A stretch of 64,000 nucleotides of DNA, taken from positions 11,320 to 75,319 of the forward strand of contig JACPBB010000001.1 in NCBI GenBank assembly GCA_016180525.1. Reading direction: 5' to 3'. The DNA comes from Parcubacteria group bacterium. Lineage in GTDB: Bacteria; Patescibacteriota; Minisyncoccia; Phycocordibacterales; UBA2135. Both the position numbers and the translations under genes were made by a program. Shown here one piece after another: positions 11,057-61,900 of the stretch (the first letter of the stretch is position 1; each line of letters begins with the position of its first letter). The notes beneath the pieces are model-generated. The model was given only the letters and a program-made list of their open reading frames with translations, ran no database searches and was not told where the DNA came from.

Positions 11057-11534
11057 ACAAACACCTGTTGTTATAATTATCACATCCGGAATTATGGGGG
11101 CAATTTTTCTTTTCCCGTATATTGCGTCGGCAATCTCTCGTATTAATGAAAGTGTTACGGTGCGAGGAAACGTGGTTGTTACCGGCGCGCTTGCAAAAGG
11201 TTCCGGCTCATTCGTCATAGACCATCCACTTGATCCTGCTAATAAATTACTCTATCATTCGTTCGTTGAATCTCCGGATGTTAAAAATATTTATTTTAGA
11301 TATCAATTCTCCTCTCTTGAAAAACCTTCTCCTAATCTTTATATAAAACAAGAAATACGAAATAATAGATTTGTAATCTCCGGAGGTGAACCAAAAATTA
11401 GAGTATCGTGGCAAGTAACAGGCGTGAGACATGACCCGTATATTCTTAAAAATCCGATTATACCAGAGGTAGAAAAAGGGTCTAATGAGTTGGTAAATAA
11501 GGGAGAATATGTATTTCCTGAATTATATGACTAA
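11046..11534 (+). CDS. small secreted protein, tandem family member 2 (internal ~25-aa deletion relative to member 1)
   Basis: Same conserved block. The middle segment DGVVKLNRNGEAKVKLPKYFEALNKD is absent. Confidence 0.5.
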   Translation: METRQTPVVIIITSGIMGAIFLFPYIASAISRINESVTVRGNVVVTGALAKGSGSFVIDHPLDPANKLLYHSFVESPDVKNIYFRYQFSSLEKPSPNLYIKQEIRNNRFVISGGEPKIRVSWQVTGVRHDPYILKNPIIPEVEKGSNELVNKGEYVFPELYD

Positions 11535-22403: not shown

Positions 22404-22485
22404 AGGCGTTAGGCGTTAGGCGTTAGGCGTTAGGCAATCTCAATATTATTCCTAGTGCCTAATGCCTAGCTGCCAGTGCCTAAAC
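22404..22485. repeat. intergenic 7-nt-periodic palindromic element (ggcgtta x4 ... cctagtg/cctaatg arm)
   Basis: Tandem heptamers ggcgttaggcgttaggcgttaggc followed by cctagtgcctaatgcctagctgccagtgcctaa, between cysS and the corA-like gene. Confidence 0.6.
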
Positions 22486-24738: not shown

Positions 24739-24811
24739 CCTTTAGGCACTAGGCTCTAGGAAAAATTAAAAAACCTAACGCCTAAAGTCTGACGCCTAAA
24801 GCCTAAAACCT
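24739..24811. repeat. intergenic 7-nt-periodic palindromic element
   Basis: gcctttaggcactaggctctagg - A-rich spacer - cctaacgcctaaagtctgacgcctaaagcctaaaacc, between the ctpA-like gene and rplI. Confidence 0.55.
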
Positions 24812-25575: not shown

Positions 25576-25650
25576 ATGTTAGAAGATTAGGCTTTAGGCA
25601 CTAAGCTCTAGGAAAATAATTCCTAAAAGCCCAACCCAACGCCCACCACG
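25576..25650. repeat. intergenic 7-nt-periodic element (degenerate second arm)
   Basis: ggctttaggcactaagctctagg - spacer - cctaaaagcccaacccaacgccc, upstream of rpmA. Confidence 0.4.
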
Positions 25651-25732
25651 CCTACTTGATACCTTATACTCTATACTTATACTGTAATATATGAAAGAGA
25701 GTATACTGAAAATTATATTAAAAGGCAAGCGA

Positions 25733-27276: not shown

Positions 27277-27329
27277 GAAGGGCTAAAGCGCTTTTTGCAC
27301 AGCAAAAACGCTTGCCCAAACATCCCACC

Positions 27330-27540
27330 ATATTATAGGCGGGAGTGTTTTAGGGGATAGCGGTTTTTGAGTGTTTTTGAGATAGAAACAATGTCGCACA
27401 ATATACATTTTCCGACACTAATACAGTGTCGGAACAATGTACTCGCCATTGTGCGACTAAACTGTGTTTTGTCGCACAATGGCTCTTTGCGACGTATATT
27501 CTAATAAAGGGTCGTAAAAGATAAGAAAGGTTGTGCAATG
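27330..27540. repeat. motif-rich convergent intergenic region related to the 57.26/60.45 kb element
   Basis: Shares ttttgagtg and the palindrome ttccgaca..tgtcggaaca. Carries three or more copies of TGTCGCACAATGG / CCATTGTGCGAC in both orientations. Confidence 0.4.
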
Positions 27541-27601
27541 TTTCTCAATTATGAACTATCATGGCTCTTGCGAACTATATTTTCATTTTATATAGATCAA
27601 A

Positions 27602-32924: not shown

Positions 32925-33251
32925 TTATGGCACTTGCGGAGCGTTCAATTCAAAATCATGAGACTGGCCAGCCTTGATACGCTCCAAGTTGCTTACAAAA
33001 GATTCCCACAATAAATTTATGAAAATATTGTTCCAAAAATATAAGACGGGGCTTCTCAAGTATTCCTGCCATACTGTTACTGTAAAACCCCACACATATT
33101 GTAAATTTGATTGCGTTTGCGGCGCTTCTATAATGCCCCGAATATCAATATTGAAATAGCTTAAGACGATAATAACAATAATGATGAGCAGAATGAGACG
33201 CAAAAATCCTTTTTGATTACGTATGTAAAGCATGAATGTATTATAACACAA
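32925..33251 (-). CDS. hypothetical small membrane protein (108 aa)
   Basis: ORF with TM helix. Weak. Confidence 0.3.
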   Translation of the reverse strand: MCYNTFMLYIRNQKGFLRLILLIIIVIIVLSYFNIDIRGIIEAPQTQSNLQYVWGFTVTVWQEYLRSPVLYFWNNIFINLLWESFVSNLERIKAGQSHDFELNAPQVP

Positions 33252-33328
33252 ACGAGGCTTTAGGTGCTAGGCATTAGGCTTTAGGGTTTTGTTTATTGCC
33301 CTAGCGCCTAGTGCCTAACGCTTAGAGC
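33252..33328. repeat. intergenic 7-nt-periodic palindromic element
   Basis: aggctttaggtgctaggcattaggctttaggg - spacer - cctagcgcctagtgcctaacgcttagagcc. Confidence 0.55.
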
Positions 33329-34603
33329 CTACAAGTAAGACAATGGATTTAAGTACGCCTCTGTCGGCGCAATGGGAATATCAACATTTTTACAATTTTT
33401 ACTATTAACAAACCGCTCAACACGAACCCCTTGTGACGCATATACCGTAAAGTGCAAATGAGGGCCTGTGGCATATCCGGTTTTTCCGCTATATCCGATT
33501 ATCTCCCCTACAGATACCTCTTGGCCAGGAACAACTTTTATAAGAGAAAGATGCGCGTACAAAGTTGCGAGACCATTAAAATGTCGTATAAGAACCCATT
33601 TGCCGTATGAATAGCATCCTCTAACCGCATCGGTATTACCAACATCCATCACTGTTCCGTTTGCGGCACTCAAGACGACTGTTCCTACTGACGCTCTTAA
33701 ATCAATTCCGTTATGACCCCGATTGTTGTACACTTGGGGATTTTGGTTCGCAAAAGAAGTATTCCCAAAATATTGTGTGATTTTTATAGAATTAAGCGGC
33801 CAGCGCAAAATACCCTTACCCGGTTTTGGAAGACTTGTTGGATCAATTTCAATTCGTAATTGAGCTTCAAACTCCCGTAACTCTTCTTCAAGTGCCTCCC
33901 GTTTTTGCAACTGTTCAGCAAGAATTTTCTTATAATCGGATTCTCTGTTTTTTGTCTCTTTAAGCAGCGCGCTCTGGTTTGCTTTGTTTTGCCTCACAAT
34001 TTCCTTTTGGTCGGCAAGGCGGGCGTTAAATGCGACCAGGTTCCGTTTCTCTTTTTCTGACGCCGCCTTTGCTTCCTCGTGGTCAATTTTTAATTCCTGC
34101 AGTGTATTTACTTTTTCATGTACTTCATTTTGAAATTGCTGCAAACCTTGCACGCCATTCCAAAATCCGGCAAATCCAAATTCTGAAAAAATAATTTCAA
34201 TAAAACTATGTGATTCAAGCTCGTTTATTTTACGTATTGACTGACCAAGCGCCGCGTCTCCATTTTTAATTCTTTTTTCTTTATCTACAATTAAAAGCGC
34301 GAGCTCTGCTATCGTCGCATTCGCTTTTCCGATTCTTTGTTCTGTGAGCCGAATATCAGCGGTTAATTTTTTATCAGTAAGCTCGAGCTGTTTAATCGCA
34401 CTTTCAAGTGTCTGCGCTTCGTTTCCGACAGATTCTATTTGAGAATCTAGTTTGTCAATCTCCGCTTGAATTTCCTGAATTTTAGCATTTCGATCTTCTA
34501 TTTTTGACTGCAACTCATCAACAATCTGCGCGTGAACAAGAAAAAGAGGAGTTGCAAATAGCAGAACAAGGCAGAATATAATTTGATTATGTTTAGCAAA
34601 CAT
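33329..34603 (-). CDS. M23 family peptidoglycan metalloendopeptidase with N-terminal coiled-coil
   Basis: Signal peptide. Long coiled-coil. C-terminal M23 motifs HNGIDL...YAHLS...GYSGKTGYATGPHLHFTVY. Confidence 0.75.
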   Translation of the reverse strand: MFAKHNQIIFCLVLLFATPLFLVHAQIVDELQSKIEDRNAKIQEIQAEIDKLDSQIESVGNEAQTLESAIKQLELTDKKLTADIRLTEQRIGKANATIAELALLIVDKEKRIKNGDAALGQSIRKINELESHSFIEIIFSEFGFAGFWNGVQGLQQFQNEVHEKVNTLQELKIDHEEAKAASEKEKRNLVAFNARLADQKEIVRQNKANQSALLKETKNRESDYKKILAEQLQKREALEEELREFEAQLRIEIDPTSLPKPGKGILRWPLNSIKITQYFGNTSFANQNPQVYNNRGHNGIDLRASVGTVVLSAANGTVMDVGNTDAVRGCYSYGKWVLIRHFNGLATLYAHLSLIKVVPGQEVSVGEIIGYSGKTGYATGPHLHFTVYASQGVRVERFVNSKNCKNVDIPIAPTEAYLNPLSYL

Positions 34604-36054: not shown

Positions 36055-37162
36055 TCCGAATTGCCTCTCGAGCGATTTTTAAAGCCGCGTCTTTTCTAAA
36101 AAACCCCTGTGCTTGTTTTTTCATTTCCTCCTGAAGGGCGCTGTTTTCCATAATCCGATTTATTTCCGAAAGTAACAAATGGGGAGTTAAATTTTTTTCT
36201 TCCATGACAATCGCCGCCCCAGAGCGAGCATAATTAAAAGCATTCTTCCGCTGATGGTCTCCATTCGATTTTGTTATTGGAACAATGATAGACGGAAGCC
36301 CCCATGAAGCAATTTCAAAAATAGTTGAGCCGGCACGTGATATAACGAGAGAAGCAACCCCAGCGGACATCCGAAGAGCAAGGGTGTGTAAATATCCAAA
36401 TGGTTTGTAGCGCCCAGTTTCGAGCCCCCCTTCTTTTAGAATCGCGAATGACATTTGCTCAGCGTTTTTTATATGAGCAACTCCTGTTTGATGAATTAGT
36501 TGATATTTTCCTATAAGCTGTGGGAGAGCATCCAGTATGACATTATTTATAATTTCAGCGCCCTGTGAACCGCCGAGAACAAGTATAACGGGAATATGTT
36601 CTTCAAGTTTGAGATATTCATATGCCCCTTCTTTAATTGGATTAGCAATATCTCTCCGTACAGGCTGCCCCACAACTGCAGTTTTTTCCTTTGGAAAGAA
36701 AGATGCCGCGCTATCCCACGAAACAGCAATCCGCTCTGCGAATTTACCGGCCCATATATTGCTCCTTCCTGGAATAGCGTCTGACTCATGGATGATAATT
36801 GGAATCCGAAAGATACGCGCCGCAAAAACGACGGGAACGCTCGCATATCCGCCCTTGCTGATTACGACGTCAGGATACAGATTGAATAATTTAAAAAGCG
36901 CCTGAATTGTACCAAGACAAAGTATAAACACGTCTATAATATTGAGCACGGAAAGATAACGTCTTAATTTACCGGAAAAAACGTGTTTAAAAGTGATGTT
37001 ATTTTCAAACAATGCTTTTTTATCAAACGGAGAAACCGACATATAAAAAATTTCCGGGTGCAAGAGTTTTTCCGTTTCAGCAATCTTATGTAACTCTTCC
37101 GCAATGGCGATAAGAGGGTAGAAATGTCCGGCAGTGCCTCCGCCGGTTAAAACAATTTTCAT
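36032..37162 (-). CDS. murG: UDP-N-acetylglucosamine--N-acetylmuramyl-(pentapeptide) pyrophosphoryl-undecaprenol N-acetylglucosamine transferase
   Basis: MKIVLTGGGTAGHFYPLIAIAEEL N-terminal G-loop plus the characteristic GT-B C-domain. Located in the dcw cluster context. Confidence 0.8.
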   Translation of the reverse strand: MKIVLTGGGTAGHFYPLIAIAEELHKIAETEKLLHPEIFYMSVSPFDKKALFENNITFKHVFSGKLRRYLSVLNIIDVFILCLGTIQALFKLFNLYPDVVISKGGYASVPVVFAARIFRIPIIIHESDAIPGRSNIWAGKFAERIAVSWDSAASFFPKEKTAVVGQPVRRDIANPIKEGAYEYLKLEEHIPVILVLGGSQGAEIINNVILDALPQLIGKYQLIHQTGVAHIKNAEQMSFAILKEGGLETGRYKPFGYLHTLALRMSAGVASLVISRAGSTIFEIASWGLPSIIVPITKSNGDHQRKNAFNYARSGAAIVMEEKNLTPHLLLSEINRIMENSALQEEMKKQAQGFFRKDAALKIAREAIRIALKHEK

Positions 37163-37230
37163 AGGCTTTAGGCTTTAGGCTTTAGGGATTAGGGATTACA
37201 TATTTTTCCTAACGCCTAGCGCCTAGTGCC
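37163..37230. repeat. intergenic 7-nt-periodic palindromic element between ftsW and murG
   Basis: ggctttaggctttaggctttagggattaggg - spacer - cctaacgcctagcgcctagtgcc. The arm ends 1 nt from the murG start codon. Confidence 0.6.
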
Positions 37231-38325
37231 TTAATTTTTACAATATCGAGATATATTCAAAATAATTCCCGAGCCAATAAACGTGAGAAGTAATGCTGTT
37301 CCTCCATGACTTATGAACGGAAGCGGTAGACCGGTGAGAGGAAAAATGGCGAGCATTGACCCAATGTTTAAAAACGCTTGGCCTGTTATAAGTATAACAA
37401 TTCCCACAACAGCGAGTCTAGAAAAATAATCAGGAGCTCTGTTCGCAATTTGAAATCCTCGTATCGCAAAAAACACAAATAGCAAAATGATAACGAGGGC
37501 GCCAATAAGACCGAATTCTTCCGCGGCGACTGCAAAAATTGAGTCGGAAATAGGCTCCGGTAAATACGTAAATTTTTGAACTCCATGCCCAAATCCCCTA
37601 CCCCATAATCCTCCGGAGCCAACAGCGATGAGTGCTTGCCCTATCTGCCAGCCAGCCCCCTGCACGTCGCTCCATGGGTTTATAAAAGTCAAAATACGCT
37701 CCGCCACATACGGCCGCGTATAAGCAAGCACGGTAAGTCCGACAATTGCCATAACGACAAGCGCGGCGATGTCCCGGAGACGAGCTCCGCTTGCAAAAAA
37801 TATTCCCACTGCGGCGGCAAGCATGACCGCAAGTGTTCCTGTATCCGGCTGTTTTAATAATATAAAACACACAATTCCCAAAAAAATAAAAAGTGGCAAA
37901 AGTCCGTAGGCAATTGTTTGTACCTTGAGACGAACGCCTGAAAACCACGCGGCAAGATAAAGCACCAATCCTAACTTTAATAACTCCGCTGGCTGAAACG
38001 AAAACGAACCAATCTCTACCCACCGAGACGCTCCTTTTAAGGTAAGCCCAATATCGGGAACAAAAACTAAAAGAGTCAGAATAATAGATGCAAGAAAAAT
38101 ATAGAATGAGTATTTTTTCCAAATTTTATAATTAATTTTTGAAACCAAAAAAAGCAGCGCGAGACCTGGTAAAAGCCCCAAAAAAACCTGATTAAAAATA
38201 ATTGATGACATCTTCGCTCCTTCTTCACGCGCAAGAAGGCCAAACGACGCAGAGAGAAAAATAAGAAATCCCCCTCCGGCAAGAAGCAATACGAGTGACA
38301 GAAACCATAGGTCAATTTTGTTCAT
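37231..38325 (-). CDS. ftsW: SEDS family peptidoglycan polymerase (FtsW/RodA)
   Basis: ~10 TM helices. Conserved SEDS segments. Position between murG and mraY. Confidence 0.7.
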   Translation of the reverse strand: MNKIDLWFLSLVLLLAGGGFLIFLSASFGLLAREEGAKMSSIIFNQVFLGLLPGLALLFLVSKINYKIWKKYSFYIFLASIILTLLVFVPDIGLTLKGASRWVEIGSFSFQPAELLKLGLVLYLAAWFSGVRLKVQTIAYGLLPLFIFLGIVCFILLKQPDTGTLAVMLAAAVGIFFASGARLRDIAALVVMAIVGLTVLAYTRPYVAERILTFINPWSDVQGAGWQIGQALIAVGSGGLWGRGFGHGVQKFTYLPEPISDSIFAVAAEEFGLIGALVIILLFVFFAIRGFQIANRAPDYFSRLAVVGIVILITGQAFLNIGSMLAIFPLTGLPLPFISHGGTALLLTFIGSGIILNISRYCKN

Positions 38326-38406
38326 AGGCGTTAGGCGTTAGGCGTTAGGCGTTAGGCGTTTTAGGATTTTAATTTTCCTAGAGCCTAGTGTCCTAGTGCC
38401 TAGAGC
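38326..38406. repeat. intergenic 7-nt-periodic palindromic element between mraY and ftsW
   Basis: ggcgttagg x5 - spacer - cctagagcctagtgtcctagtgcctagagcc. Confidence 0.6.
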
Positions 38407-39459
38407 CTAAATTAAAGCGATCACCATCCCTAAAATCGCGAGCACTCCGCTTAAAATCCAAAAGCGCATGGTAACCTTATACGCGGGCCATCCCAAAGCT
38501 TCAAAATGATGATGAATGGGCGCGATAAGAAATACTTTTCTACCAAATATTTTTTTTCCTATGAGTTGTACAATAACAGATGCCGGAGCGGCAAAGAGAA
38601 AAAAGGCAATGAGCGGCAAAACAATAACAGCCTTTGTAAGAAAGGCGACAACGGCAAGGGTCGTGGTAAGCCCTAAAATCCCCGTCTCTGACATATAGAA
38701 TCGCGCGGGAGGAATATTAAACCACAAAAACGCAAAGGTGCCTCCGGCAATGACACTGCAAAACGCCGCAAGGTCAATTTGGTTTTGAAAAAACGCGATT
38801 CCGGCATACGCGGCAAACGCAGTCGCAAGAATGCCCCCCGCAAGCCCGTCAAGCCCGTCAATAACCCCACCCGAAAAAAGAGCAAGCATGACAAGCATAA
38901 AGAAAGGTATAAAAAAAATCCCTAGAGAAATTTCCCCGAGAAACGGTATCGCGATAGTACTCACGCCCAATTTAACAAAAAACCACCATGCACCGATTGC
39001 CCCAATCCCTAAAACAGTAGCGATACGAAAAGACAATGGAAGCCCCCCGGCAACATATCCGCCTCGCCCAAACACAACTAAAAAATCATCAAATAATCCG
39101 ACACACGATGCCGCAAGAAGCGTAAAAAGGGGTAGCCAAGTTTGACTTCTGCTTAAAAAATTAAATTTTTCAGCTGCTTCCCCGGAAAATAGCTTTGATA
39201 GTAAAAAAAAGAATAAAACAGTAATAAGCGTTGAAAGCCAAATAATAATACCTCCCATACGCGGAGTGTTCGTTTCTTTTTCTTTATGAAGCGCGTTGAA
39301 AAGCGGCGTCTCCCCTCCTCCGAGCGCTTCATTCCGCGCTTTTTTTTTCCAAAGTTTATATTTATAGAGATAGTGCGTAACAAACGGAGTTATTGAAATG
39401 CCAATAGCAAACGCGACTGTCGCAGGAATAAATACTTTTAAGACGTTGATGATTTCCAT
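38407..39459 (-). CDS. mraY: phospho-N-acetylmuramoyl-pentapeptide transferase
   Basis: Polytopic membrane protein with MraY-type conserved loops (DD...DGLDGLAGG). dcw context. Confidence 0.8.
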   Translation of the reverse strand: MEIINVLKVFIPATVAFAIGISITPFVTHYLYKYKLWKKKARNEALGGGETPLFNALHKEKETNTPRMGGIIIWLSTLITVLFFFLLSKLFSGEAAEKFNFLSRSQTWLPLFTLLAASCVGLFDDFLVVFGRGGYVAGGLPLSFRIATVLGIGAIGAWWFFVKLGVSTIAIPFLGEISLGIFFIPFFMLVMLALFSGGVIDGLDGLAGGILATAFAAYAGIAFFQNQIDLAAFCSVIAGGTFAFLWFNIPPARFYMSETGILGLTTTLAVVAFLTKAVIVLPLIAFFLFAAPASVIVQLIGKKIFGRKVFLIAPIHHHFEALGWPAYKVTMRFWILSGVLAILGMVIALI

Positions 39460-39530
39460 GATACTAGGCTTTAGGCTTTAGGCTTTAGGAATTTCGTTTT
39501 TTCTAATGCCTAGCGCCTAGTGCCTCAATA
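39460..39530. repeat. intergenic 7-nt-periodic palindromic element immediately upstream of mraY, at the host-side edge of the GC-rich cassette
   Basis: ctaggctttaggctttaggctttagg - aatttcgttttttc - taatgcctagcgcctagtgcc. Confidence 0.6.
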
Positions 39531-39603
39531 ATATTATAACACTAAATAGACCTCGCTCAGAAGTTCGCCTCGTTAGAAATTCAGCCATTATTGTTTTTTA
39601 AAA

Positions 39604-39648
39604 TAAAAAAAGCCCCCCGAGCTACCGCGTAAGCAGTAGCATCGGGGG
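39604..39648 (-). terminator. intrinsic terminator downstream of the 566-aa GC-rich gene
   Basis: Minus-strand reading: cccccgatgctactgcttacgcggtagctcggggggc followed by ttttttt. Confidence 0.6.
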
Positions 39649-39717
39649 ACGTAGTTTGCTCTCCTCAAGAGTATTTCTCAACTAAAGAGGAGAAAAGAAC
39701 ATTGCCTTGTCGGACCG

Positions 39718-41418: not shown

Positions 41419-41509
41419 GGTGATTTCCTTTCTTTCTGTCTGTAGTTGTCAAGGTCTTAAAGGGTTTTTCCGTACAAAAAACGTACACCCTCTTCGTACT
41501 AATTGTTAT

Positions 41510-41563
41510 TATAGCAAAAAAGAAAGGCCCTGTCAAGTACCTTTCTAGGTTCCTGACAGGGCC
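41510..41563 (-). terminator. hairpin + T-tract after the 211-aa cassette gene, also containing a -10-like element for the 566-aa gene
   Basis: Minus-strand reading: ggccctgtcaggaacctagaaaggtacttgacagggcc tttctttttt gctataataacaa. Confidence 0.5.
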
Positions 41564-41588
41564 GCAAAAAACTCTTTACCTGTGAGCT

Positions 41589-43866: not shown

Positions 43867-44799
43867 TTAAAGTTGCAATGTTTTAAGTGCCGCGAATATA
43901 AGCTGTTCGGCGTCTGAAAAACGTTCGTCAGGAGTTGACCCGAGCACGACAACCGCAATCGGCCGCATAGGCCCTGCATCAAAAATGAGCGCGAAATTTC
44001 CTCCGGCAAGATCAGTTGTCCCCGTCTTTGAGGCGACAATTCCCGGAAATGTTTCAACAAACTTATTCGTATTTTCAAGATTGTGTACTGCCCCATCAAG
44101 AGAGTGCGTCGTAAGCAAAAGATGTGTCGTTGCTTCCATTAAATGCGGATGCTCTCTCTCTACGTATCCAAGAAGACGCGCGAAGTCCTGCGCCGAGCCG
44201 TATGCGCCGCTTACTCCGAGATTTATATCAAACCCCGTTTCATTGATAAAAAATGTTTGACTGAGTCCTATTTGTTTTGCTTTTTGGTTTAACGCTTCTG
44301 TAAGTGGACTCTGTCCAGACGCAAATGAATCTCTGCCGCCAGAAGTGATTACAGACGCAAGCGCATGAGCTCCATCATTTGACGAAGTCAAGAGTGTTGC
44401 GTCAATTAAATCTTTTAAGCGCCAGCGCTCTCCGACGAGAAATCCATGGTCCCCTTCTTCTAAAATTGCTTCCTTGCTTACTATGGCAATACCGTCTTCT
44501 CCCTGTTCCTCAAGAGCGATGAGCGCGGTCATAATTTTAGTAAGGGAAGCGAGAGGAAGTTGTGCTTCTCCGTTTAATGAATATAAAGGCTTCTTTTTTT
44601 CTATATCAAAAACAAATGCCGCTTTTGCTTTAAGGTGTATGAGTGAAAACGGGTCAGGGACTAAAAGTTGTTTTATGTGCTCTTCTTCCGGAGACGTAAG
44701 AATATTCGTTTGTATTAACACCATGCGCCCAAATAAAAAAAGAAAAAAGACGAGCGCAAGCCCGGAAACAATAATGTGGTCTTTGTTCTTAAAATTCAT
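43867..44799 (-). CDS. D-alanyl-D-alanine carboxypeptidase, serine peptidase S11 (PBP5-like)
   Basis: N-terminal TM. SxxK (SLTK), SxN (SSN) and KTG (KTGTT) active-site motifs in the correct order. Confidence 0.75.
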   Translation of the reverse strand: MNFKNKDHIIVSGLALVFFLFLFGRMVLIQTNILTSPEEEHIKQLLVPDPFSLIHLKAKAAFVFDIEKKKPLYSLNGEAQLPLASLTKIMTALIALEEQGEDGIAIVSKEAILEEGDHGFLVGERWRLKDLIDATLLTSSNDGAHALASVITSGGRDSFASGQSPLTEALNQKAKQIGLSQTFFINETGFDINLGVSGAYGSAQDFARLLGYVEREHPHLMEATTHLLLTTHSLDGAVHNLENTNKFVETFPGIVASKTGTTDLAGGNFALIFDAGPMRPIAVVVLGSTPDERFSDAEQLIFAALKTLQL

Positions 44800-44865
44800 A
44801 AAAATTTAGGGTTTAGCGGATAGCGTTTAGACGAAACTGAACCCTAAACGCTGTACGCTAAACGC
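44800..44865. repeat. intergenic palindromic element, sequence variant (gggtttagcg / cgctaaacgc arms)
   Basis: gggtttagcggatagcgtttag - spacer - ccctaaacgctgtacgctaaacgc. Same architecture with different heptamers. Confidence 0.45.
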
Positions 44866-45411
44866 TTATTCTTCTTGATTTTGAAATGTTTCTTCAAATA
44901 CTTTTACTTCGTTCTGAACTGTTTCATATTCAGGCAGCTGTGAAATACGGGTTATGCCCAAATATTGAAGTAATTCAAACGCAGGTCGGTATAACAAAAT
45001 TCGCTTGTCTTTTTCATCTACGATCCTTTCAATTAAACCACGAACAAGCAAGTTTCTCAAAATAAATTGCGAGTTTACGCCACGAATAAAATCAATATTA
45101 CTTTTATTGATCGGGCCACGATAGAGAATGAGCGTAAGTGTTTCAAGAGCCGCGCGAGAAAGCTCCGCGGTAAGCTCTGCTTTTGTTATCTCGGCAAGAA
45201 GCTCTCCGTGTTCAGGCGCGCTCCCCAGCATAACGGTATCTTCTTTAAATAGCAACCTCACACCGCGCCCTTCCAAATTTTTTTCAAGCAACAAAAGAGC
45301 CTCTTTGACTTCTTCTTCCGCAACTTTTAAATGCTTAGCTAAAAAAGCTATACGCACAGGTTCTGCTTTTAAGAAAAGAATCGCTTCAATTTTTTGCTCT
45401 AGGTTAGACAT
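44866..45411 (-). CDS. scpB: segregation and condensation protein B
   Basis: Tandem winged-helix pattern (IEAILFL...EPVRIAFLAKHL...; LETLTLILYRGPINKSNIDFIRGV) typical of ScpB. Adjacent to scpA. Confidence 0.7.
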   Translation of the reverse strand: MSNLEQKIEAILFLKAEPVRIAFLAKHLKVAEEEVKEALLLLEKNLEGRGVRLLFKEDTVMLGSAPEHGELLAEITKAELTAELSRAALETLTLILYRGPINKSNIDFIRGVNSQFILRNLLVRGLIERIVDEKDKRILLYRPAFELLQYLGITRISQLPEYETVQNEVKVFEETFQNQEE

Positions 45412-55106: not shown

Positions 55107-55457
55107 TTATACAAATTCAATGATTGCCATTTTGCTGGCATCTCCTAAGCGACGAGGCAGTTTGGTAATTCTTGTGTACCCTCCAGCTCGTTCTTTATAG
55201 CGAGGCGCAATATCAGCGATAAGCTTCTTGGCGCCCACCCTGTTACCAAGACGTGCCACCAAAAGTCTGTGTGTAGAAAGTGAACTATTTTTTCCTCTTG
55301 TCACCAATTTTTCAACAAAGGGCCGTAATTCCTTCGCCTTTGCTTCAGTTGTTTTAATTTTTCCTCTAGTGACAAGAGAAAGTGCTAAACCACGAAGAAG
55401 CGCCCTCCTTTGGTCTCTTTCTCTTCCAAATTTTCTGTTTTTGTTATGATGCCTCAT
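55107..55457 (-). CDS. rplQ: 50S ribosomal protein L17
   Basis: MRHHNKNRKFGRERDQRRALLRGLALSLV is the L17 consensus. Confidence 0.9.
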   Translation of the reverse strand: MRHHNKNRKFGRERDQRRALLRGLALSLVTRGKIKTTEAKAKELRPFVEKLVTRGKNSSLSTHRLLVARLGNRVGAKKLIADIAPRYKERAGGYTRITKLPRRLGDASKMAIIEFV

Positions 55458-55538
55458 GTTACTAGGCTTTAGGCTTTAGGCTTTAGGCTTTAGGAATCGT
55501 TGTTTTTTCCTAGTGCCTAGCGCCTTAACGCCTAGTGC
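55458..55538. repeat. intergenic 7-nt-periodic palindromic element between rpoA and rplQ
   Basis: ctaggctttagg x4 - aatcgttgttttttc - ctagtgcctagcgccttaacgcctagtgcc. Confidence 0.6.
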
Positions 55539-56504
55539 CTATTTTAAAGTTATTCCAAAATTTCCAAGCGTCCGTTTAATTTCTTGAACACCTTTCTCGC
55601 CAAGACCTGATACATTCGATAAATCATCCGCGCTTTTTCGTATTAAACCACCTACTGTTCGTATATTTGCCCCTGAGAGTGCATTCGCTGTTCTCGTAGA
55701 AAACCCCAAAGTGTCAATCCGTGTTTTAAGAAAGTCCTTATCAATATTTTCATTCTCTCCTACACCCGCTTCTCCGTCTTCCGATACTGCTTGTTTTATT
55801 TTCTCTTCCGTATCCTGAAAGCCGACAATCGCTTTCAATTGCTTTATCATAATATCAATTGAGTTTTCAAGCGCTTCGCGCGGGGAAAGAGTGCCATCAG
55901 TTTCTATAAAAATACGCAACTTGTTGTAATCAGTTCTGTCGCCAACACGCATATTTTCAACTTCATAATTGACTCGACGAATCGGTGTAAATACCGCATC
56001 AAGTACAATAGTGCCAATTTCAACTTTTTCTTTTTGTAAAACTTCCTTAGGAACATACCCGAGTCCACGTTCAAGCCGAATGCTCGCGTTAAGCGAAGTC
56101 TTTTTATTAGTAATTTCACCAATATATTGTTCGGGGTTTAAAACTTCAACCTGTCCAGGCACTTTTATATCAGCACCTGTAATTTTTTTCATCCCCGAAA
56201 CAGAAAGAGAGACTTCTTGTGATTCATCGGTAACCATTTTAAATCTAACTTTTTTTAAATTTAAAATAAGAGTAATAATATCTTCCTTTATTCCATCTAG
56301 GGTTGAAAACTCATGCTGAACTCCATCAATTTTAATAGACGTAATCGCAGTCCCCGGCAAAGAAGAAAGAATAATGCGCCGTAATGAATTTCCAAGCGTA
56401 TGTCCGTACCCGGGATACAAACTATCAATCTCATACATACCCCTGAATCCATCTTCAGAAATTACTTTTGGTTTTGACGGAAGAATTATAGTATAGTCAG
56501 GCAC
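55539..56504 (-). CDS. rpoA: DNA-directed RNA polymerase alpha subunit
   Basis: YGHTLGNSLRRIILSSLPGTAITSIKIDGVQHEFS N-terminal-domain signature. C-terminal helix-hairpin-helix region. Confidence 0.9.
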   Translation of the reverse strand: MPDYTIILPSKPKVISEDGFRGMYEIDSLYPGYGHTLGNSLRRIILSSLPGTAITSIKIDGVQHEFSTLDGIKEDIITLILNLKKVRFKMVTDESQEVSLSVSGMKKITGADIKVPGQVEVLNPEQYIGEITNKKTSLNASIRLERGLGYVPKEVLQKEKVEIGTIVLDAVFTPIRRVNYEVENMRVGDRTDYNKLRIFIETDGTLSPREALENSIDIMIKQLKAIVGFQDTEEKIKQAVSEDGEAGVGENENIDKDFLKTRIDTLGFSTRTANALSGANIRTVGGLIRKSADDLSNVSGLGEKGVQEIKRTLGNFGITLK

Positions 56505-56636: not shown

Positions 56637-57242
56637 TTATCTGCTATAAAATCCTATAACTGCGGGTATGCTAAACACATCTCCAGAAATCATTTCTAAT
56701 TTTGGAATCCCGATAACATTTCCTTCCATTTTTTTAGGATCAAGCGAGAGCCATGCGGGAGTAATATGAGTATTGAGAGATTCCGAAATATTCATAAACA
56801 GCTTACTTTCTCTGCTTCCGGGTCGTATTTCTATACGATCCTTACCTCCGACGGTAAAAGATGGAATATTCACCCTTCTACCGTTCACCATAATATGTCC
56901 ATGGGACACCATCTGACGAGCAAGAGGACGTGTTTTTGCAAAACCAAGTCTAAATACTACATTGTCGAGTCTTAATTCAAGATTTTTATATAAATGTTCA
57001 GCTGGATTTACCCCTTTTTTAAGTGTTGCTTTTTTCACATATGTCGCAAACTGCCGTTCGTTTAAATTATACGTCAAACGCATTTTTTGTTTTTCAAGAA
57101 GTTGAATTCCGAATTCGGTAATCGGCGATGGATGTTTCCGTGCGACTGTCTTTTTCGTCAAAATAAATTTTGGGTTTTGTGTTTTAGAAAAAATTCGTGC
57201 CCCTAGACGACGTGCTGTTTTGTATTGTTTTAGTTTTGCCAT
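56637..57242 (-). CDS. rpsD: 30S ribosomal protein S4
   Basis: Start reset to the internal Met (MAKLKQYKTARRLGARIF), the canonical S4 N-terminus. The upstream part of the ORF track overlaps a repeat element. Confidence 0.85.
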   Translation of the reverse strand: MAKLKQYKTARRLGARIFSKTQNPKFILTKKTVARKHPSPITEFGIQLLEKQKMRLTYNLNERQFATYVKKATLKKGVNPAEHLYKNLELRLDNVVFRLGFAKTRPLARQMVSHGHIMVNGRRVNIPSFTVGGKDRIEIRPGSRESKLFMNISESLNTHITPAWLSLDPKKMEGNVIGIPKLEMISGDVFSIPAVIGFYSR

Positions 57243-57260
57243 AAAAATAATGAATGAAAT

Positions 57261-57383
57261 GAATATATTTTTTGAGCACCCCCTTCTTTTCGCGCAAGCG
57301 CGCAAAAGGAGGGGGTAAAGGTTTGGCATCCACAGTTTTTGTTCCGACATGTCGGAACAAAAACTGTGGGCCAATTCACTTTA
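57261..57383. ncRNA. duplicated structured intergenic element, copy A (two hairpins) between rpsK and rpsD
   Basis: gaatatattttttgagcaccccc. Hairpin 1: cccccttcttttcgcgcaagcgcgcaaaaggaggggg. Hairpin 2: ccacagtttttgttccgacatgtcggaacaaaaactgtgg with a 19-bp stem. Ends at ccaattcacttta, abutting the rpsK stop. Confidence 0.45.
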
Positions 57384-57815
57384 CACTCTTCTTGGTTTCT
57401 TTGGCTTAGGACCATTATGTGGAATAGGCGTTTCATCCCGAATCACTTTTAGTTCCACCCCGCGGGAAGCAAAAGAGCGTAGAGATGATTCACGTCCTGG
57501 GCCAACTCCAGATAATACTACAACAACCTCTTTTATTCCTATAGTTTTCGCTTTTTCCCCGATAAGTTCCCCTACTTTCGCGGCGGCAAACGGGGTTCCT
57601 TTTTTTGTTCCTTTAAATCCTAAGGAACCGCTTGACGACCAACAAAGCGTGTTACCTTTTTTATCGGAAAGTAAAAGGTGCGTATTGTTGTATGTTGACT
57701 GGATATGAAGTATTCCATCGGAAACTTTTTTCTTGGGAGATTTACCCAAAGACCTGGTGCGTAATTCCGCATCAAATCCGCCACCGCTTTTTTGTACTGT
57801 TCGTTTTTTTCCCAT
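57381..57815 (-). CDS. rpsK: 30S ribosomal protein S11
   Basis: GILHIQSTYNNTHLLLSDKKGNTLCWSSSGSLGFKG...KVGELIGEKA is the S11 consensus. Confidence 0.9.
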   Translation of the reverse strand: MGKKRTVQKSGGGFDAELRTRSLGKSPKKKVSDGILHIQSTYNNTHLLLSDKKGNTLCWSSSGSLGFKGTKKGTPFAAAKVGELIGEKAKTIGIKEVVVVLSGVGPGRESSLRSFASRGVELKVIRDETPIPHNGPKPKKPRRV

Positions 57816-57902
57816 GATACTAGGCTTTAGGCTTTAGGCTTTAGGCTTTAGGAATATTATTATTTCTTCCTAGTGCCTAGTGCCTAATGTCTAGTCCCTG
57901 AA
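57816..57902. repeat. intergenic 7-nt-periodic palindromic element between rpsM and rpsK
   Basis: ctaggctttagg x4 - aatattattatttcttc - ctagtgcctagtgcctaatgtctagtccc. Confidence 0.6.
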
Positions 57903-58283
57903 TTATGTCTTTTCCAACTTCCGCTTACCGGATCCCATTGTTTTTCTCACATTGCCACGAACCGTTCTTGAATTCGACTTTGTCTGCTGGCCACGAACCG
58001 GCAAATTTTTAGCATGACGAATTCCGCGATATGCCTTTATGTCTTTAAGACGTTTAATATTCCCCGCAACTTCTCTTTTCAACTCCCCTTCAATTACATA
58101 TTCTTCTACTAATTTTCGAATCTTGTTTTCATCCTCTGCTTTTAGGTCAGTTGATTTTAGAGTTTTATCAACGTGCGCTTTCTCTAAAATAGTTAGAGCT
58201 CGTGACCGACCAATGCCATAAACAGCCATGAGTGCAAACTCAAGGCGTTTCTGTTCTGGAATTGTAATACCTGCGATACGCAT
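57903..58283 (-). CDS. rpsM: 30S ribosomal protein S13
   Basis: MRIAGITIPEQKRLEFALMAVYGIGRSRA is the S13 consensus. Confidence 0.9.
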   Translation of the reverse strand: MRIAGITIPEQKRLEFALMAVYGIGRSRALTILEKAHVDKTLKSTDLKAEDENKIRKLVEEYVIEGELKREVAGNIKRLKDIKAYRGIRHAKNLPVRGQQTKSNSRTVRGNVRKTMGSGKRKLEKT

Positions 58284-58374
58284 GATACTAGGCTTTAGGC
58301 TTTAGGCTTTAGGCTTTAGGAATATCATTGCTTTCTCCCTAGCGCCTAGTGCCTAATGTCTAGTGCCTGAATTA
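58284..58374. repeat. intergenic 7-nt-periodic palindromic element between rpmJ and rpsM
   Basis: ctaggctttagg x4 - aatatcattgctttctcc - ctagcgcctagtgcctaatgtctagtgcc. Near-identical to the 57816 copy. Confidence 0.6.
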
Positions 58375-58488
58375 TTATCCTTGTTTTTGTTTATGTTTAG
58401 GATTTCTACAAATAATATACAAGCGACCTCTGCGCCTAACCATTTGACAATTGGGACAAATTTTTTTTACAGAAGCACGTACTTTCAT
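58375..58488 (-). CDS. rpmJ: 50S ribosomal protein L36 (not in the ORF track, <60 aa)
   Basis: The reverse strand translates to [37 protein letters not shown], a clear L36 with its C-x2-C...C...H Zn ribbon. Sits between rpsM and infA as expected. Confidence 0.85.
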
Positions 58489-58588
58489 AAAATAATACTT
58501 AGTATGCGAATTGTACTAATGATGCAAGTAATGCTAATACGGGATATTCGTATCCATTCGTATCATTCGTACATATTTGTATTGTTCT

Positions 58589-58801
58589 TTATATCCTCTT
58601 CACTATTCTACCCCTCCCACCATATGGATCTGTTTCAATCTCAACCCTGTCGCCAACTAAAACTTTTATACGGAACTTGCGCATTTTGCCCGACAAATAT
58701 GCGAGCATAGTTTCTTTGTTCCCAAGCTCTATACGAAATAAGGTGCTGGGCAGCGCTTCTGTCACAACACCAATTACTTTCTCTTGTTTTTTTTCTCTCA
58801 T
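58589..58801 (-). CDS. infA: translation initiation factor IF-1
   Basis: KVIGVVTEALPSTLFRIELGNKETMLAYLSGKMRKFRIKVLVGDRVEIETDPYGGRGRIVKR is a near-canonical IF-1 S1 fold. Confidence 0.9.
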   Translation of the reverse strand: MREKKQEKVIGVVTEALPSTLFRIELGNKETMLAYLSGKMRKFRIKVLVGDRVEIETDPYGGRGRIVKRI

Positions 58802-59012
58802 TCGTTTATATAACGATAGTCACCATCCTAACAAAAAGATAAAAACGTGTCAACCCTGTTAGAAGCTTTTGTCATATTTTCACACATTGCTATATATAGC
58901 TATAAGCCAATTCGTTTTGTCAGACCCCACAAAACCTACATTTCAGATGAACTTTTTAACAAAGGCAACTTCATCGCTCAAAAGCGACAGATCCAAGCCT
59001 TTGTTTTCGGCA

Positions 59013-60365
59013 TTATTCCTCAATGATAGTCTCTATATCTATGTCTTTTGGATCATCAGGGAACGACCCTCTCCAAAACGGACGAAGTACGACCTCTGCT
59101 TTTTGAATGCTGGGGTATTGAGTAAGTACCTGTTTAAATTCCTCTTTAGATTTTTTTGCAGTATCTATTTGTAGTTTATTTGGGTCAAATTCCCAAACAA
59201 CATGAGGATTCCCTTGAACAACAAAAGAAAGAACGGTGTCTTCGGTCGGAGAAAATAATTCTTTGTTTGATACTGCAAATGTGAGACTATCCAAATTTTT
59301 TATCATAATTTTTTCTTGCGTGCCCAGGCCTGGGACAAGTATTTTCCCTAAAAATTGAGAGAGACCATTTTCATTAAAAATAAGTCCGTGAAGCGTCCCT
59401 GAAACAATTACATCAACTTCATTTTTATCAACGTTCGTTTGTATAGCGCGAACCTGTCCTTCGTCAAGAGTAAAGAAAACGGCATCATTGTATAAAATAA
59501 ATTCATCCGGTTTTTGTGAATGGGCTTTTTGAAGTAATTTTGAACGCAGAGAAGCTCCAAGTTCATTTTTTGCTTTTTCCAACTGTTCATTTGAGACAGT
59601 TTTAACAATCCCCGAAAATCCTCCGGTCATAGGAGTTTGCGAGCGGGCATAAAACCCAGGAAACCGAGCAGTGCCCTTAAATCCTGGAATGGTAAAATCA
59701 GTTAACGGAATGTTGTATTTCTCTCCTGGAGCATCAGCATATACCGTAACTTCAACAGAGCCTGGAATTTTTTCTCCACTCACGGTCTTCTGTCCTGGAA
59801 TAACTACCGGCTCGCGAATCCGATAGATGAGGCCTTCGGGAGTTTCAAATCGAGTTCGCACCACTAATTGTTGATTCTTTGAATCAAAATTATTGTAGAT
59901 TATTATTTTCCCCGAGGCTTCTTTGTCAACACGCTCCACTTGCGTTGCTGGCAACGTTTTTTTCTCTTCTCCCGAAAGAGTCATTATCTCAAAAGCCAAG
60001 CTGCCCGATACAGCCACACCCCGCTCTGCGGTAAGAGATTCATTTAACGAGAGAACCTGCTGTTTGGGCGTAATTTTTATGGTTGCTTTCTCAAAAAGAG
60101 AAAAAATCGCAAATAAAACAACCACAATGGATAACGCGGCAATGCCCCATACTATAAGCCGTGAATTGCCTTTCCAATTAAAACCGCTTTTTTGAGAAGA
60201 GGCTCTCGCGTATTCTCCAAAGGGCCGCCGTTCTTTTTTCTCAGCCTTAAAACCGACATCTTTCATATTTATAGATGAAGGCTTCTTGAGAGGTTCTTTT
60301 GGAGGGACAATAATATCCTGTAATATTTGTTTTGCCATGCTAAAAAATAATGACCGAGCACTCAA
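59013..60365 (-). CDS. hypothetical bitopic membrane protein (450 aa)
   Basis: Single TM helix (LIVWGIAALSIVVVLFAIFSLF) followed by a ~380-aa extracytoplasmic domain. Upstream repeat element at 60452..60579. Confidence 0.45.
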   Translation of the reverse strand: MSARSLFFSMAKQILQDIIVPPKEPLKKPSSINMKDVGFKAEKKERRPFGEYARASSQKSGFNWKGNSRLIVWGIAALSIVVVLFAIFSLFEKATIKITPKQQVLSLNESLTAERGVAVSGSLAFEIMTLSGEEKKTLPATQVERVDKEASGKIIIYNNFDSKNQQLVVRTRFETPEGLIYRIREPVVIPGQKTVSGEKIPGSVEVTVYADAPGEKYNIPLTDFTIPGFKGTARFPGFYARSQTPMTGGFSGIVKTVSNEQLEKAKNELGASLRSKLLQKAHSQKPDEFILYNDAVFFTLDEGQVRAIQTNVDKNEVDVIVSGTLHGLIFNENGLSQFLGKILVPGLGTQEKIMIKNLDSLTFAVSNKELFSPTEDTVLSFVVQGNPHVVWEFDPNKLQIDTAKKSKEEFKQVLTQYPSIQKAEVVLRPFWRGSFPDDPKDIDIETIIEE

Positions 60366-60451
60366 ATAAATCTGAGCAATCTGATGTCTATATTGATTAT
60401 TTTATAAAAATTTTTCATAAATATTCTGATGTTATATATTTTGAGTGTTCG

Positions 60452-60579
60452 GGAATATATTTTTTGAGCACCCCCTTCTTTTCGCGCAAGCGCTCAAAAG
60501 GAGGGGGTAAAGGTTTGGCAGCCGCAGTTTTTGAGTTTTTCTCTTCAAAAACTTAAAAACTGCGGGCCAATTCACTTTA
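60452..60579. ncRNA. duplicated structured intergenic element, copy B, upstream of 59013..60365
   Basis: Same flanks and hairpin 1. Hairpin 2 stem is ccgcag...ctgcgg (compensatory relative to copy A) with a different loop. Confidence 0.45.
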
Positions 60580-61854
60580 TTATACCACACCTGCTTTCTT
60601 GTTCAAAAACAAAGATTCCACAATTAAAAATGGATCCTTATAAACACCTAAACCTATGTCACAGTAAGGAGCAAGAGTTTTTTCATCAAATAACGTTACC
60701 TGAAAAGACTTTTCCGCTCCCGTAACGTTTAAAAGTTTGTTTCTAGTAATAATACTCAAAAACCACCCGCGAAGCGGCTCATCAACTGTTAAAAAAATAT
60801 CACGAGGGAATAAAACATTCGAAGAAATATTTTTTAGCTCTTTTGCAAACAAACGAAGCCATTCTGTTTCTGCGTTTGCCAATATTTTTTTTAACCTGTG
60901 CATTTCAAAATCTCCAAGATGCTTTTTCTCGTACATACTAAGCAGTGACTCAGCTTCCCGTATTGAAAGATTAAGTTCAGAGACAACCTGACGAACAACA
61001 GTATTTTTCCCGAAAGGAAACGACACCGTATCATAGAGCACGCCATTTTTGACAATAGACAAATCTGAAATCTCCCCGCTTATATCAAGAAGTAAATAAT
61101 TTTGCTTTTCGTGCCAGATATCACGAACTGCGTTGAAAAAAGCAAATGTGAATGTTGCAAATTGAATTTCAACTCCAGAAAATATTTCTCGCCCGAGGGA
61201 TTCAATTTTTTCTATTGTCGTGGTAAGCATGGAGCTAGCAAATATCGTCATTTCAAGCTCATCGGTCACTTTCCCGATTGGATGGTACGTCGGGTATTTG
61301 TTTAAACGAATATCCAGAACATCTCCTTCAATAATTTCATATTTTTGTTCTACGCGATTCCGAACGTGCGAGGCGTGCATTTTTCGAAATTCATTTAGTT
61401 CTCGCAAAATTAGTTTCCGCATTAAATCTCTCTCAACTAAAAAGGAGTGGTCTTCTTTTTTCTTGATAGTTCTAATCTGCGAGATATGCCATGGACTTGA
61501 GAGTGTAAAGAGGATAAGTACCGGCTTTAATGTATTAAAAAAGGTAAAACGTACATGTGGCAACCCCTCTCGTACAATAAGAAAAGCAACTTCTTGTAAC
61601 GCTTTCGTCATTTTTAAGGTAAGGCCTTCGGGAGTAAGTTTTTTAGATACCTTAATTTCTCTTCGAGATGAATAAAATATTTTAGGGCTGTTGTTTTTAG
61701 AAATACCTACAAGTGCGGCACCAACGGAGGCATTTCCAATGTCAAAAACCACGGCAAGTTTTTCCGTTTTTTTTTTAAACCAAAAAGCTGTCATTACAGT
61801 TATTATATCATGAGATACCATGCTGACGCGCAACCCATTTCCCCACTTTTTCAC
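60580..61854 (-). CDS. actin-like ATPase fold protein (FtsA/PilM family candidate)
   Basis: KLAVVFDIGNASVGAALVGI phosphate-1-like motif near the N-terminus. ~420 aa. Adjacent to a bitopic membrane protein. Confidence 0.35.
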   Translation of the reverse strand: MKKWGNGLRVSMVSHDIITVMTAFWFKKKTEKLAVVFDIGNASVGAALVGISKNNSPKIFYSSRREIKVSKKLTPEGLTLKMTKALQEVAFLIVREGLPHVRFTFFNTLKPVLILFTLSSPWHISQIRTIKKKEDHSFLVERDLMRKLILRELNEFRKMHASHVRNRVEQKYEIIEGDVLDIRLNKYPTYHPIGKVTDELEMTIFASSMLTTTIEKIESLGREIFSGVEIQFATFTFAFFNAVRDIWHEKQNYLLLDISGEISDLSIVKNGVLYDTVSFPFGKNTVVRQVVSELNLSIREAESLLSMYEKKHLGDFEMHRLKKILANAETEWLRLFAKELKNISSNVLFPRDIFLTVDEPLRGWFLSIITRNKLLNVTGAEKSFQVTLFDEKTLAPYCDIGLGVYKDPFLIVESLFLNKKAGVV

Positions 61855-61900
61855 TACATTTTTTACATAAAAAGCGGAGCATTGCTCCGCTTTTAACTTA

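Follow-up and report, generated by a model that had tools for sequence, protein, structure and literature searches.

Two copies of one element in a single window

The subject of this analysis is a palindromic element that occurs twice in a stretch of 64,000 nucleotides (nt) from a Parcubacteria group bacterium (assembly GCA_016180525.1, contig JACPBB010000001.1, positions 11,320 to 75,319), a stretch referred to below, at its full length, as the window. Copy A occupies 57243..57383, that is, the entire rpsK-rpsD spacer, with the stop codon of rpsK (57381-57383) included and the ATG of rpsD (57240-57242) just excluded, and copy B occupies 60339..60582, again an entire spacer, from the stop codon (60580-60582) of a 424-amino-acid (aa), FtsA-like open reading frame (ORF) to the ATG (60336-60338) of a 441-aa ORF. 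Both copies, with all their parts, and all the genes flanking them lie on the minus strand, hereafter the gene strand. The order on it is rpsK (S11; 57381..57815; its orthologues carry PF00411), copy A and rpsD (S4; 56637..57242; PF00163 and PF01479) at one locus, and the 424-aa ORF (60580..61854), copy B and the 441-aa ORF (59013..60338) at the other. The 424-aa ORF has a weak FtsA match in its orthologue at L049 (L-numbers denote related loci retrieved from genomes and metagenomes, L049, L050 and L052-L056 being among those compared by synteny); the 441-aa ORF has no Pfam match, and its ATG at 60338 was chosen by orthologue comparison. An exact look-up of the RpsK protein gave no record.

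Outside their second hairpin, A (57261-57383) and B (60453-60579) are 96-100% identical, and a repeat search pairs 57261-57341 with 60453-60533 over 81 nt at 96% identity. Pairwise alignment reveals a common flank, a hairpin 1 with a single G/T difference, the linker TAAAGGTTTGGCA and an identical 16-nt terminus, GGCCAATTCACTTTA; the interiors of hairpin 2 are unlike, and an A-T pair of this hairpin in A corresponds to a G-C pair in B (ccAcag..ctgTgg vs ccGcag..ctgCgg). Exactly two sites in the 64-kb window match the 23-mer of hairpin 1, with no occurrence expected from 100 shuffles. Fold prediction turns each copy, on either strand, into two long hairpins at -51 to -66 kcal/mol (z = -6.5 to -9.0; equalled by none of 200 shuffles), and covariance model R1, run with filters off, finds only A and B in the window, the next match having E = 0.17. 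The duplicated two-hairpin element proposed in an earlier reading of the letters alone (the sequence-only reading) is thus borne out by alignment, repeat search and folding, with copy B starting at 60453 and not at 60452, and the compensatory exchange of A-T for G-C that it saw preserving the pairing of hairpin 2 is plain in the alignment.

On the gene strand each copy opens with an inverted repeat, the P2 domain, followed by a hairpin 1 (hp1) module and a conserved flank. The P2 domain of copy A (57316..57383; R1 match 57313-57382, 46.9 bits, E=1.5e-10) consists of the closing helices TAAAGG/CTTTA and TTGGC/GCCAA, a 2-nt bulge and then the variable 20-bp hairpin 2, whose arms (57330-57349 and 57350-57369) have as their apex a TCCGAC/GTCGGA palindrome; the palindrome ttccgacatgtcggaa that had been described inside this hairpin is present at 57342-57357. 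Its hp1 module (57279..57315) has a short form, CCCCCTTCTTTTCGCGC-AAGC-GCGCAAAAGGAGGGGG, that is also found in L017, L037 and L044, and its flank GAATATATTTTTTGAGCA (57261..57278; TGCTCAAAAAATATATTC on the gene strand) includes a TGCTCAA motif that is kept family-wide. Copy B has a P2 domain at 60508..60579 (R1 match 60509-60577, 40.3 bits, E=1e-8) with a hairpin 2 of its own (arms 60522-60540 and 60547-60565), a short-form hp1 module at 60471..60507 in which alignment and folding place one uncompensated G-to-T change relative to copy A, and the same flank GAATATATTTTTTGAGCA at 60453..60470, as aligned and as returned by the repeat search. It is also longer than first described, in that an inverted-repeat search uncovered a further palindromic module (60354..60452) between it and the ATG at 60338, with arms CCGAGCACTCAAA (60354-60366) and TTTGAGTGTTCGG (60440-60452) around a 73-nt AT-rich interior; arms of this type (CCGAGCACTCA...) act as hp1 in L026:7406 and L032:12945. 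The contact with the upstream stop codon, which the sequence-only reading had described as direct abutment in both copies, is closer than that in A, where the last three bases of the element (57381-57383) are the rpsK stop codon itself, and holds for B, where the ORF stops at 60580-60582 and the element's own TAA (60577-60579) forms a second in-frame stop.

Strong GC-containing hairpins right after a stop codon could be taken for an intrinsic terminator or attenuator between genes. However, no hairpin is followed by a U-tract on either strand, the terminator scan lists neither hp1 nor hp2, and its sole match in copy B, at 60445-60471, is a stem of the flank whose tail, CCCCTTCTTT, is not a U-tract. 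Textbook hairpin-plus-T-run terminators stand elsewhere in the window (e.g. at 61855-61900, 41419-41588 and 39460-39717), as do canonical sigma70 promoters, and termination inside essential ribosomal-protein operons would be unlikely in any case, all of which makes this explanation very improbable. The promoter scan finds no promoter-like site inside copy A or B. Immediately upstream of B, a TTGAAC-16 nt-TATAAT sequence preceded by TG (60579-60606, minus strand) overlaps the double stop (GTA TAA TAA); it may place a transcript start at the first base of the element, or may be a by-product of TAATAA or a coincidence.

A modular hairpin family in Patescibacteria

Copies A and B are two members of a large, widespread modular hairpin repeat family in Patescibacteria (the candidate phyla radiation, CPR), of which a search with an 18-nt linker and the covariance model together returned about 40 copies in Patescibacteria metagenome-assembled genomes (MAGs) and metagenomes. 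Most members were found via this one exact 18-mer, GGGGGTAAAGGTTTGGCA, which was scanned against one genome per species and then against metagenomes and viral contigs. It occurs at 15 loci in the genome scan, nine of which, all in Patescibacteria/CPR MAGs (Tagabacteria, Portnoybacteria, Saccharibacteria, UBA2135 and one unclassified bin), share the architecture, with hairpin sequences that are quite different; the metagenome scan added about 17 further members, and the viral contigs gave no match to the 18-mer. Relaxed motifs (three mismatches at most) and model R1 yield 38 strong matches in 246 kb of related loci, and copies can be dense, with three to four each in L008 (5.6 kb), L004 (8 kb) and L032 (13.8 kb), and the copies of any one locus share a strand. 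Is the conserved linker then only a reflection of how the copies were discovered? Five copies at four loci (L050, L054, L055 twice and L056) were found by protein homology and not by motif, and because GCCAAACCTTTACCC is invariant in them, linker conservation is not an artefact of discovery. Rfam 15 gives no match in the window at gathering thresholds and, at a permissive E-value, only generic hairpin (miRNA-model) matches far below gathering scores; a literature search found no description of the family, which is apparently undescribed.

Read on the gene strand, an element starts with a stop codon, TAA or TGA, and AGnGAATTGGCC, followed by hairpin 2 (hp2), a variable, nearly perfect palindrome of 20-45 nt that often bears a small GC hairpin at its apex; the TCCGAC/GTCGGA palindrome forms this apex in several family members. 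The outer part of hp2 is the helix TAAAGG..TTGGC / GCCAA..CCTTTA, so that the upstream stop codon is itself base-paired. The sequence (N)TGCCAAACCTTTA joins hp2 to hp1, whose CCC(CC)...(GG)GGG arms of 12-20 bp are perfect inverted repeats around one of two kinds of interior, a short GC hairpin (the form seen in the window) or 40-107 nt of non-palindromic sequence. After hp1 comes GGG-TGCTCAA(A/T)TTT and, often, a third hairpin, hp0, the 3' arm of which (AAAATTGGC) stands directly before the ATG. The junctions that connect P2, one to three hp1 modules and hp0 are conserved (GGGTAAAGG and GGG-TGCTCAA), the P2 termini TAAAGGnTTGGC and GCCAAnnCCTTTA are inverted repeats, and the structured repeats as a whole span 70-300 nt. 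A second TCCGAC...GTCGGA palindrome lies at 27411-27433 of the window, in a 325-nt spacer between convergent ORFs (27277-27601) that folds at -116 kcal/mol (z = -8), contains several long perfect hairpins and has no Rfam match.

These modules are separable: hp1 is missing in L006:954, is tandem or nested in L044, L018 and L050, and occurs with hp0 but without P2 in the rpoA-rplQ spacer of L050. Copies within one genome may have modules in common, as is the case for hp1 in window copies A and B and for hp2 in the pairs of L038 and L006. At two loci of one metagenome (L026, about 3733-3850, and L032, about 9129-9245) identical 18-bp hp1 arms enclose interiors of about 65 nt in opposite orientation, each matching the reverse complement of the other at 57 of 66 positions, which amounts to an inversion between the hp1 arms. 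Despite this one inversion, the idea that hp1 interiors serve as mobile or invertible promoters was rejected, the best sigma70-like scores showing no orientation bias (6 vs 7 of 16).

All copies lie between ORFs (gene calls in the metagenome loci being crude ORF calls), and their orientation is identical in all 19 tandem gene contexts; three copies sit between divergent genes and none between convergent ones. The element fills the whole stop-to-start spacer, its end lying 0-5 nt ahead of the start codon that follows. At its other end, the element has the upstream stop codon as its opening triplet in 14-15 of 24 cases (a TGA if the motif is TGAAG), and in four cases the ORF extends 14 nt into the element. 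The chain thus fills whole spacers between co-directional genes in one orientation, on which grounds it is presumably co-transcribed within the operon mRNA.

At least 15 unrelated genes follow the element, including rpsD (three times), rpsH, rplQ, rpsN, rpsM, rpmE, secY, pheT and genes for Rrf2 regulators, a hydrolase and membrane proteins. This diversity bears on the proposal, one of those in the sequence-only reading, that copy A serves to control rpsD as an autoregulatory leader to which S4 or a different ribosomal protein binds. Copy A does lie directly upstream of rpsD, and three other members also precede this gene (L004, L006/L055). However, the genes that follow copy B and about 20 other members are unrelated, the element is missing from the rpsK-rpsD spacer of six syntenic relatives (L049, L050, L052, L053, L054 and L056), and there is no Rfam match; the proposal did not survive these comparisons and is now hardly credible. 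At L055 (9704-10000), which stems from the organism of L006 (UBA2135 lineage), the gap between rpsM and rpsD measures 297 nt, contains no called rpsK and is wholly taken up by a three-hairpin element; rpsK must be located elsewhere in that genome.

Covariation of the stems and turnover of the spacers

How are the hypervariable stems kept paired? Alignment A3 contains 30 distinct copies, trimmed and with the variable apex replaced by GAAA, which brings the first ten stem pairs into register. In it, 96.6% of cells are paired, compared with 73% in shuffles and 20-54% when the partners are slid against each other; 12 of the 15 pairs change on both sides, in 105 such cells, and G-U appears in only 2 of 444 cells. 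Overall, 458 oppositions are Watson-Crick, 2 are G-T and 7 are A-C, and family-wide G-T and A-C are equally rare (18 vs 13 in one count, 2 vs 7 in another). The closing helices covary too, TTGGC/GCCAA being replaced by TTGCC/GGCAA and TTTGC/GCAAA, and TAAAGG/CCTTTA by TATAGG/CCTATA. Fold energies favour the plus strand in 10 of 25 family members, which amounts to no consistent strand signal.

Because covariation is Watson-Crick-only and no strand signal is seen, the stems behave as DNA-level inverted repeats, and the pattern points to DNA inverted repeats and not to a slowly evolving or long-lived RNA helix; arm-to-arm correction such as quasipalindrome template switching would fit it. The ‘textbook compensatory’ A-T to G-C exchange between copies A and B, although real, is one case of this Watson-Crick-only covariation with almost no G-U. 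The view that the resemblance of the two copies is not due to chance has been strengthened by the many further copies and by the covariation at 12 of 15 stem positions, that is, by the search for additional copies and the covariance model that had been suggested as checks and have now been run.

The same counts weigh on a second RNA-based explanation, namely that the element represents a small RNA gene of its own, on the plus strand of the window and antisense to the operon, running from near GAGCA to past hairpin 2 and overlapping the 3' end of the upstream gene. In the window copies the plus strand does fold slightly better (-65.6 and -66.2 vs -63.0 and -51.2 kcal/mol), and many copies have an A/T-rich TAnAAn hexamer 7-8 nt upstream of GCACCCCC. 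Yet neither the G-T and A-C counts nor the fold energies give a family-wide strand signal, the hexamer is explained as the 3' arm of hp0, and neither window copy has a sigma70-like promoter or a U-tract terminator on offer, though canonical ones exist elsewhere. Moreover, a trans-acting small RNA would need no stop-to-start placement in a single orientation, as found in 19 of 19 tandem contexts, and the explanation is accordingly judged quite improbable.

The fate of the element at orthologous positions was followed in syntenic relatives retrieved via S4 homologues (56-78% identity), in which the rpsK-rpsD, rpsM-rpsK, rpmJ-rpsM and rpoA-rplQ spacers of the window, L049, L050 and L052-L056 were compared. 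Between rpsK and rpsD, where the window has its two-hairpin element (138 nt), L050, L052, L053 and L054 have a hairpin of another type, built of heptamers, and L049 and L056 have spacers of 44 nt (unstructured) and 11 nt, respectively. Between rpsM and rpsK the heptamer hairpin is present in the window, L052/L053 and L054, the two-hairpin element in L050 and L056, and a 35-nt unstructured spacer in L049. Between rpmJ and rpsM the window and L052 carry the heptamer hairpin, L054 the two-hairpin element and L056 52 unstructured nt; the tail of the L054 copy is nearly identical to that of the window (TGCTCAAAAAATATATTCATT...CATTATTTTTTAGC-ATG). The element is therefore one that is gained, lost or replaced at orthologous spacers of related genomes.

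The heptamer arrays constitute a second, larger hairpin family, of the form (TAGGCTT/TAGGCGT)x3-5, loop, (CCTAGTG/CCTAGCG)x3-4, in which (TAGGCNN)n repeats make 5-bp helices split by regular 2x2 internal loops. In the window they lie at 22396-22492, 24722-24810, 25580-25690, 33245-33340, 37150-37240, 38305-38410, 39455-39540, 55452-55548, 57810-57908 and 58278-58392, and they recur in L050, L052, L053 and L054. They run from the stop codon to 4-5 nt before the next ATG (e.g. ..CCTAG-TATC-ATG) in ribosomal-protein and dcw-cluster operons; one forms a 5' untranslated region after an extended -10 promoter (39460-39717). Their folds are 4-14 kcal/mol more favourable on the strand that is antisense to the gene downstream. 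Variants of the types (TTAGCTN)n and (TAAACGC)n take the same stop-to-start positions in L052 (6845-6935 and 11666-11752), L055 (11994-12085 and 12440-12498) and the window (44786-44890). About 20 spacers of the window fold with z < -4. No Shine-Dalgarno sequence is visible upstream of the ribosomal-protein and neighbouring genes examined (e.g. starts 57242, 57815, 58283 and 60338, and the L049 spacers), be there a hairpin or none; at least one gene, that after the 41419-41588 spacer, has GAAAGGAAAT before its ATG.

Could such spacers be selected devices in their own right? The main alternative to the explanation favoured below is that the element is a cis-acting mRNA device, a ‘hairpin punctuation’ or translational coupler, whose first helix would be melted by a ribosome as it terminates, or whose hairpins would be cut by an RNase (III, J or similar), either event coupling or separating the cistrons. 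In keeping with this, the stop codon lies inside helix P2a in those 14-15 of 24 cases (again TGA where TGAAG), the start codon directly follows hp0, the orientation is fixed, and deep conservation of the closing-helix sequence extends to the unbiased samples; in this genome and in related ones the same stop-to-start niche is also taken by an unrelated hairpin family, that of the heptamers, and the strongly folding window spacers and the lack of a visible Shine-Dalgarno sequence before the genes examined can be read in the same sense. By contrast, in the close relatives L049 and L056 short spacers without structure suffice at these junctions, module composition varies freely, and in three-hairpin copies the melting of P2 would not expose the start codon. 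Three copies occupy divergent spacers with no upstream ORF, and G-U pairs are almost absent. On balance we regard such a device as unlikely, albeit worth keeping in mind. More speculative, and less likely again, is a broader version in which two-hairpin chains and heptamer hairpins together would form a selected punctuation system of CPR operons, with exact stop-to-start structured spacers coupling or separating cistrons through ribosome-driven unfolding or RNase processing, possibly giving rise to near-leaderless mRNAs, in lineages without Shine-Dalgarno sequences, and with a conserved CPR factor recognising the invariant closing helix of P2.

A probable palindromic repeat family and its known counterparts

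The explanation that we favour, with a probability of roughly 0.6, is that A and B belong to a modular palindromic intergenic repeat family comparable to repetitive extragenic palindromes (REPs) and bacterial interspersed mosaic elements (BIMEs), the Correia (nemis) elements and BOX. It builds on direct observation of the family and its modularity, of covariation, orientation lock and stop-codon embedding, and of turnover and module sharing within a genome. One element is a chain of hairpin modules, P2 first, then one or more hp1 and often hp0 at the next start codon; in P2 the closing helices are conserved, whereas the distal stem is hypervariable and pairs almost perfectly by Watson-Crick rules. 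The stems would be maintained as DNA inverted repeats, either through correction of one arm against the other or through templated copying, and the scarcity of G-U pairs would follow from this. The conserved closing helices may be the recognition sites of a spreading or maintaining activity, whether transposition or recombination. Within the mRNA the hairpins would act only generically, as stable intercistronic structures that are possibly RNase III substrates or 3' stabilisers, and would not regulate rpsD. The many further copies of the hairpin family also fit the ‘small mobile structured repeat’ that the sequence-only reading had listed among its options.

Several points weigh against the favoured explanation. 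The 45 ORFs scanned in the window, which covers 64 kb of a MAG contig of 344,533 bp, include no transposase or recombinase domain, and no mobilising enzyme was found among them. Inspection of the copy flanks revealed no target-site duplications: the hp1 flanks GAGCA and TAAAG are unlike, and the AATTGGC motifs at the two ends of the element do not vary together within a copy (e.g. in L033, CTTGGC vs ATTCGC). Unlike freshly transposed miniature inverted-repeat transposable elements (MITEs), A and B differ in hairpin 2. Finally, selection on function, and not mere tolerance, is suggested by the fixed orientation, by how exactly the element fits from stop to start, and by GCCAAACCTTTACCC being invariant in the five copies found by protein homology.

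Why should such repeats matter? CPR/Patescibacteria genomes measure about 1 Mb and are thought to be streamlined; here, structured repeats of the length given above lie inside essential ribosomal-protein and cell-division operons and turn over fast between relatives. If they are selfish, a large and uncultured section of the bacterial tree would contain a repeat system, mobile or recombining, that is new; it would also lend itself to strain typing as a practical marker and count as a known hazard when genomes are assembled. Should they be functional, they would bear on operon expression and on translation initiation without Shine-Dalgarno sequences in these organisms. For annotation, the lesson is that an RNA upstream of rpsD, structured and with a compensatory mutation, should not be labelled a ribosomal-protein leader.

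Two further observations concern other parts of the window. Tandem direct repeats of 115-200 nt (71-94% identity) at 10620-12186, together with an 18-nt repeat (TATGCTCAAGGTTACTAC-like) inside ORFs, suggest a repetitive, Tyr/Gly-rich surface protein, and about 15 of 20 scanned ORFs (128-570 aa) in window positions 1-21000 have no Pfam match at E <= 1e-5, as is typical of CPR. 

Some known classes of element were dismissed. An integron attC site is an imperfect palindrome behind a cassette ORF, with R'' (RYYYAAC) at its 5' end and R' (GTTRRRY) at its 3' end; on inspection the element shows the reverse box order (GTTTGGC ... GCCAA on either strand), and the host loci are core operons and not cassette arrays; a DNA-uptake sequence, T-box, tRNA-like element or ribozyme was dropped from the sequence itself, the copy number being too low and the defining motifs absent, and the tRNA/tmRNA scan found none.

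The REP units and BIMEs of enterobacteria and pseudomonads are likewise short extragenic palindromes, often in operons near stop codons, arranged as mosaics with conserved linkers, present in many copies and co-transcribed as mRNA hairpins, as would be the case here. Reportedly, in work by Liang, Rudd and Deutscher from 2015, a REP no more than about 15 nt from a stop codon influences how the gene upstream is translated. In contrast to the Patescibacteria element with its strictly single orientation, however, REPs occur in both orientations, typically alternating in BIMEs; they have a GTAG-type 5' motif and are tied to REP-associated tyrosine transposases (RAYTs, of the IS200/IS605 Y1 type), none of which is seen among the 45 window ORFs, whereas the Patescibacteria element has hypervariable distal stems and extends as far as the start codon that follows.

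The Correia (nemis/CREE) elements of Neisseria and MITEs share with the present family a length of 100-150 bp, boundaries formed by inverted repeats, long hairpins, (here probable) co-transcription with neighbouring genes, and a presence or absence that differs between related genomes; the hairpins of the Neisseria Correia elements are said, in work attributed to De Gregorio et al., to be RNase III substrates. The Patescibacteria element differs in having no target-site duplication, TA target or known autonomous partner, in interiors that vary within one genome while the termini are fixed, and in its strict orientation and chain of several palindromes. BOX of Streptococcus pneumoniae is similarly modular (boxA, a variable number of boxB, boxC), intergenic and stably folded, with a module number that varies, but there is no sequence relationship, its modules are conserved in sequence and are not hypervariable palindromes, and it lacks the single-orientation stop-to-start fit. 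With the S4 or alpha-operon leader and the Rfam families of ribosomal-protein leaders the element has only its position in common, a structured region upstream of rpsD; unlike them it is not rpsD-specific, not positionally conserved and not matched by an Rfam model.

For the heptamer hairpins of the window, the nearest published analogue is the family of TAACTGA heptamer repeats, which are intergenic in Beggiatoaceae, cyanobacteria and Bacteroidetes. These too are direct repeats a few nt before start codons, in spacers that have no canonical ribosome-binding site, including those of ribosomal-protein operons (PMC4679880), whereas the window heptamers (TAGGCNN) form two opposed arrays that fold into a hairpin with regular 2x2 internal loops, in another sequence and in another phylum.

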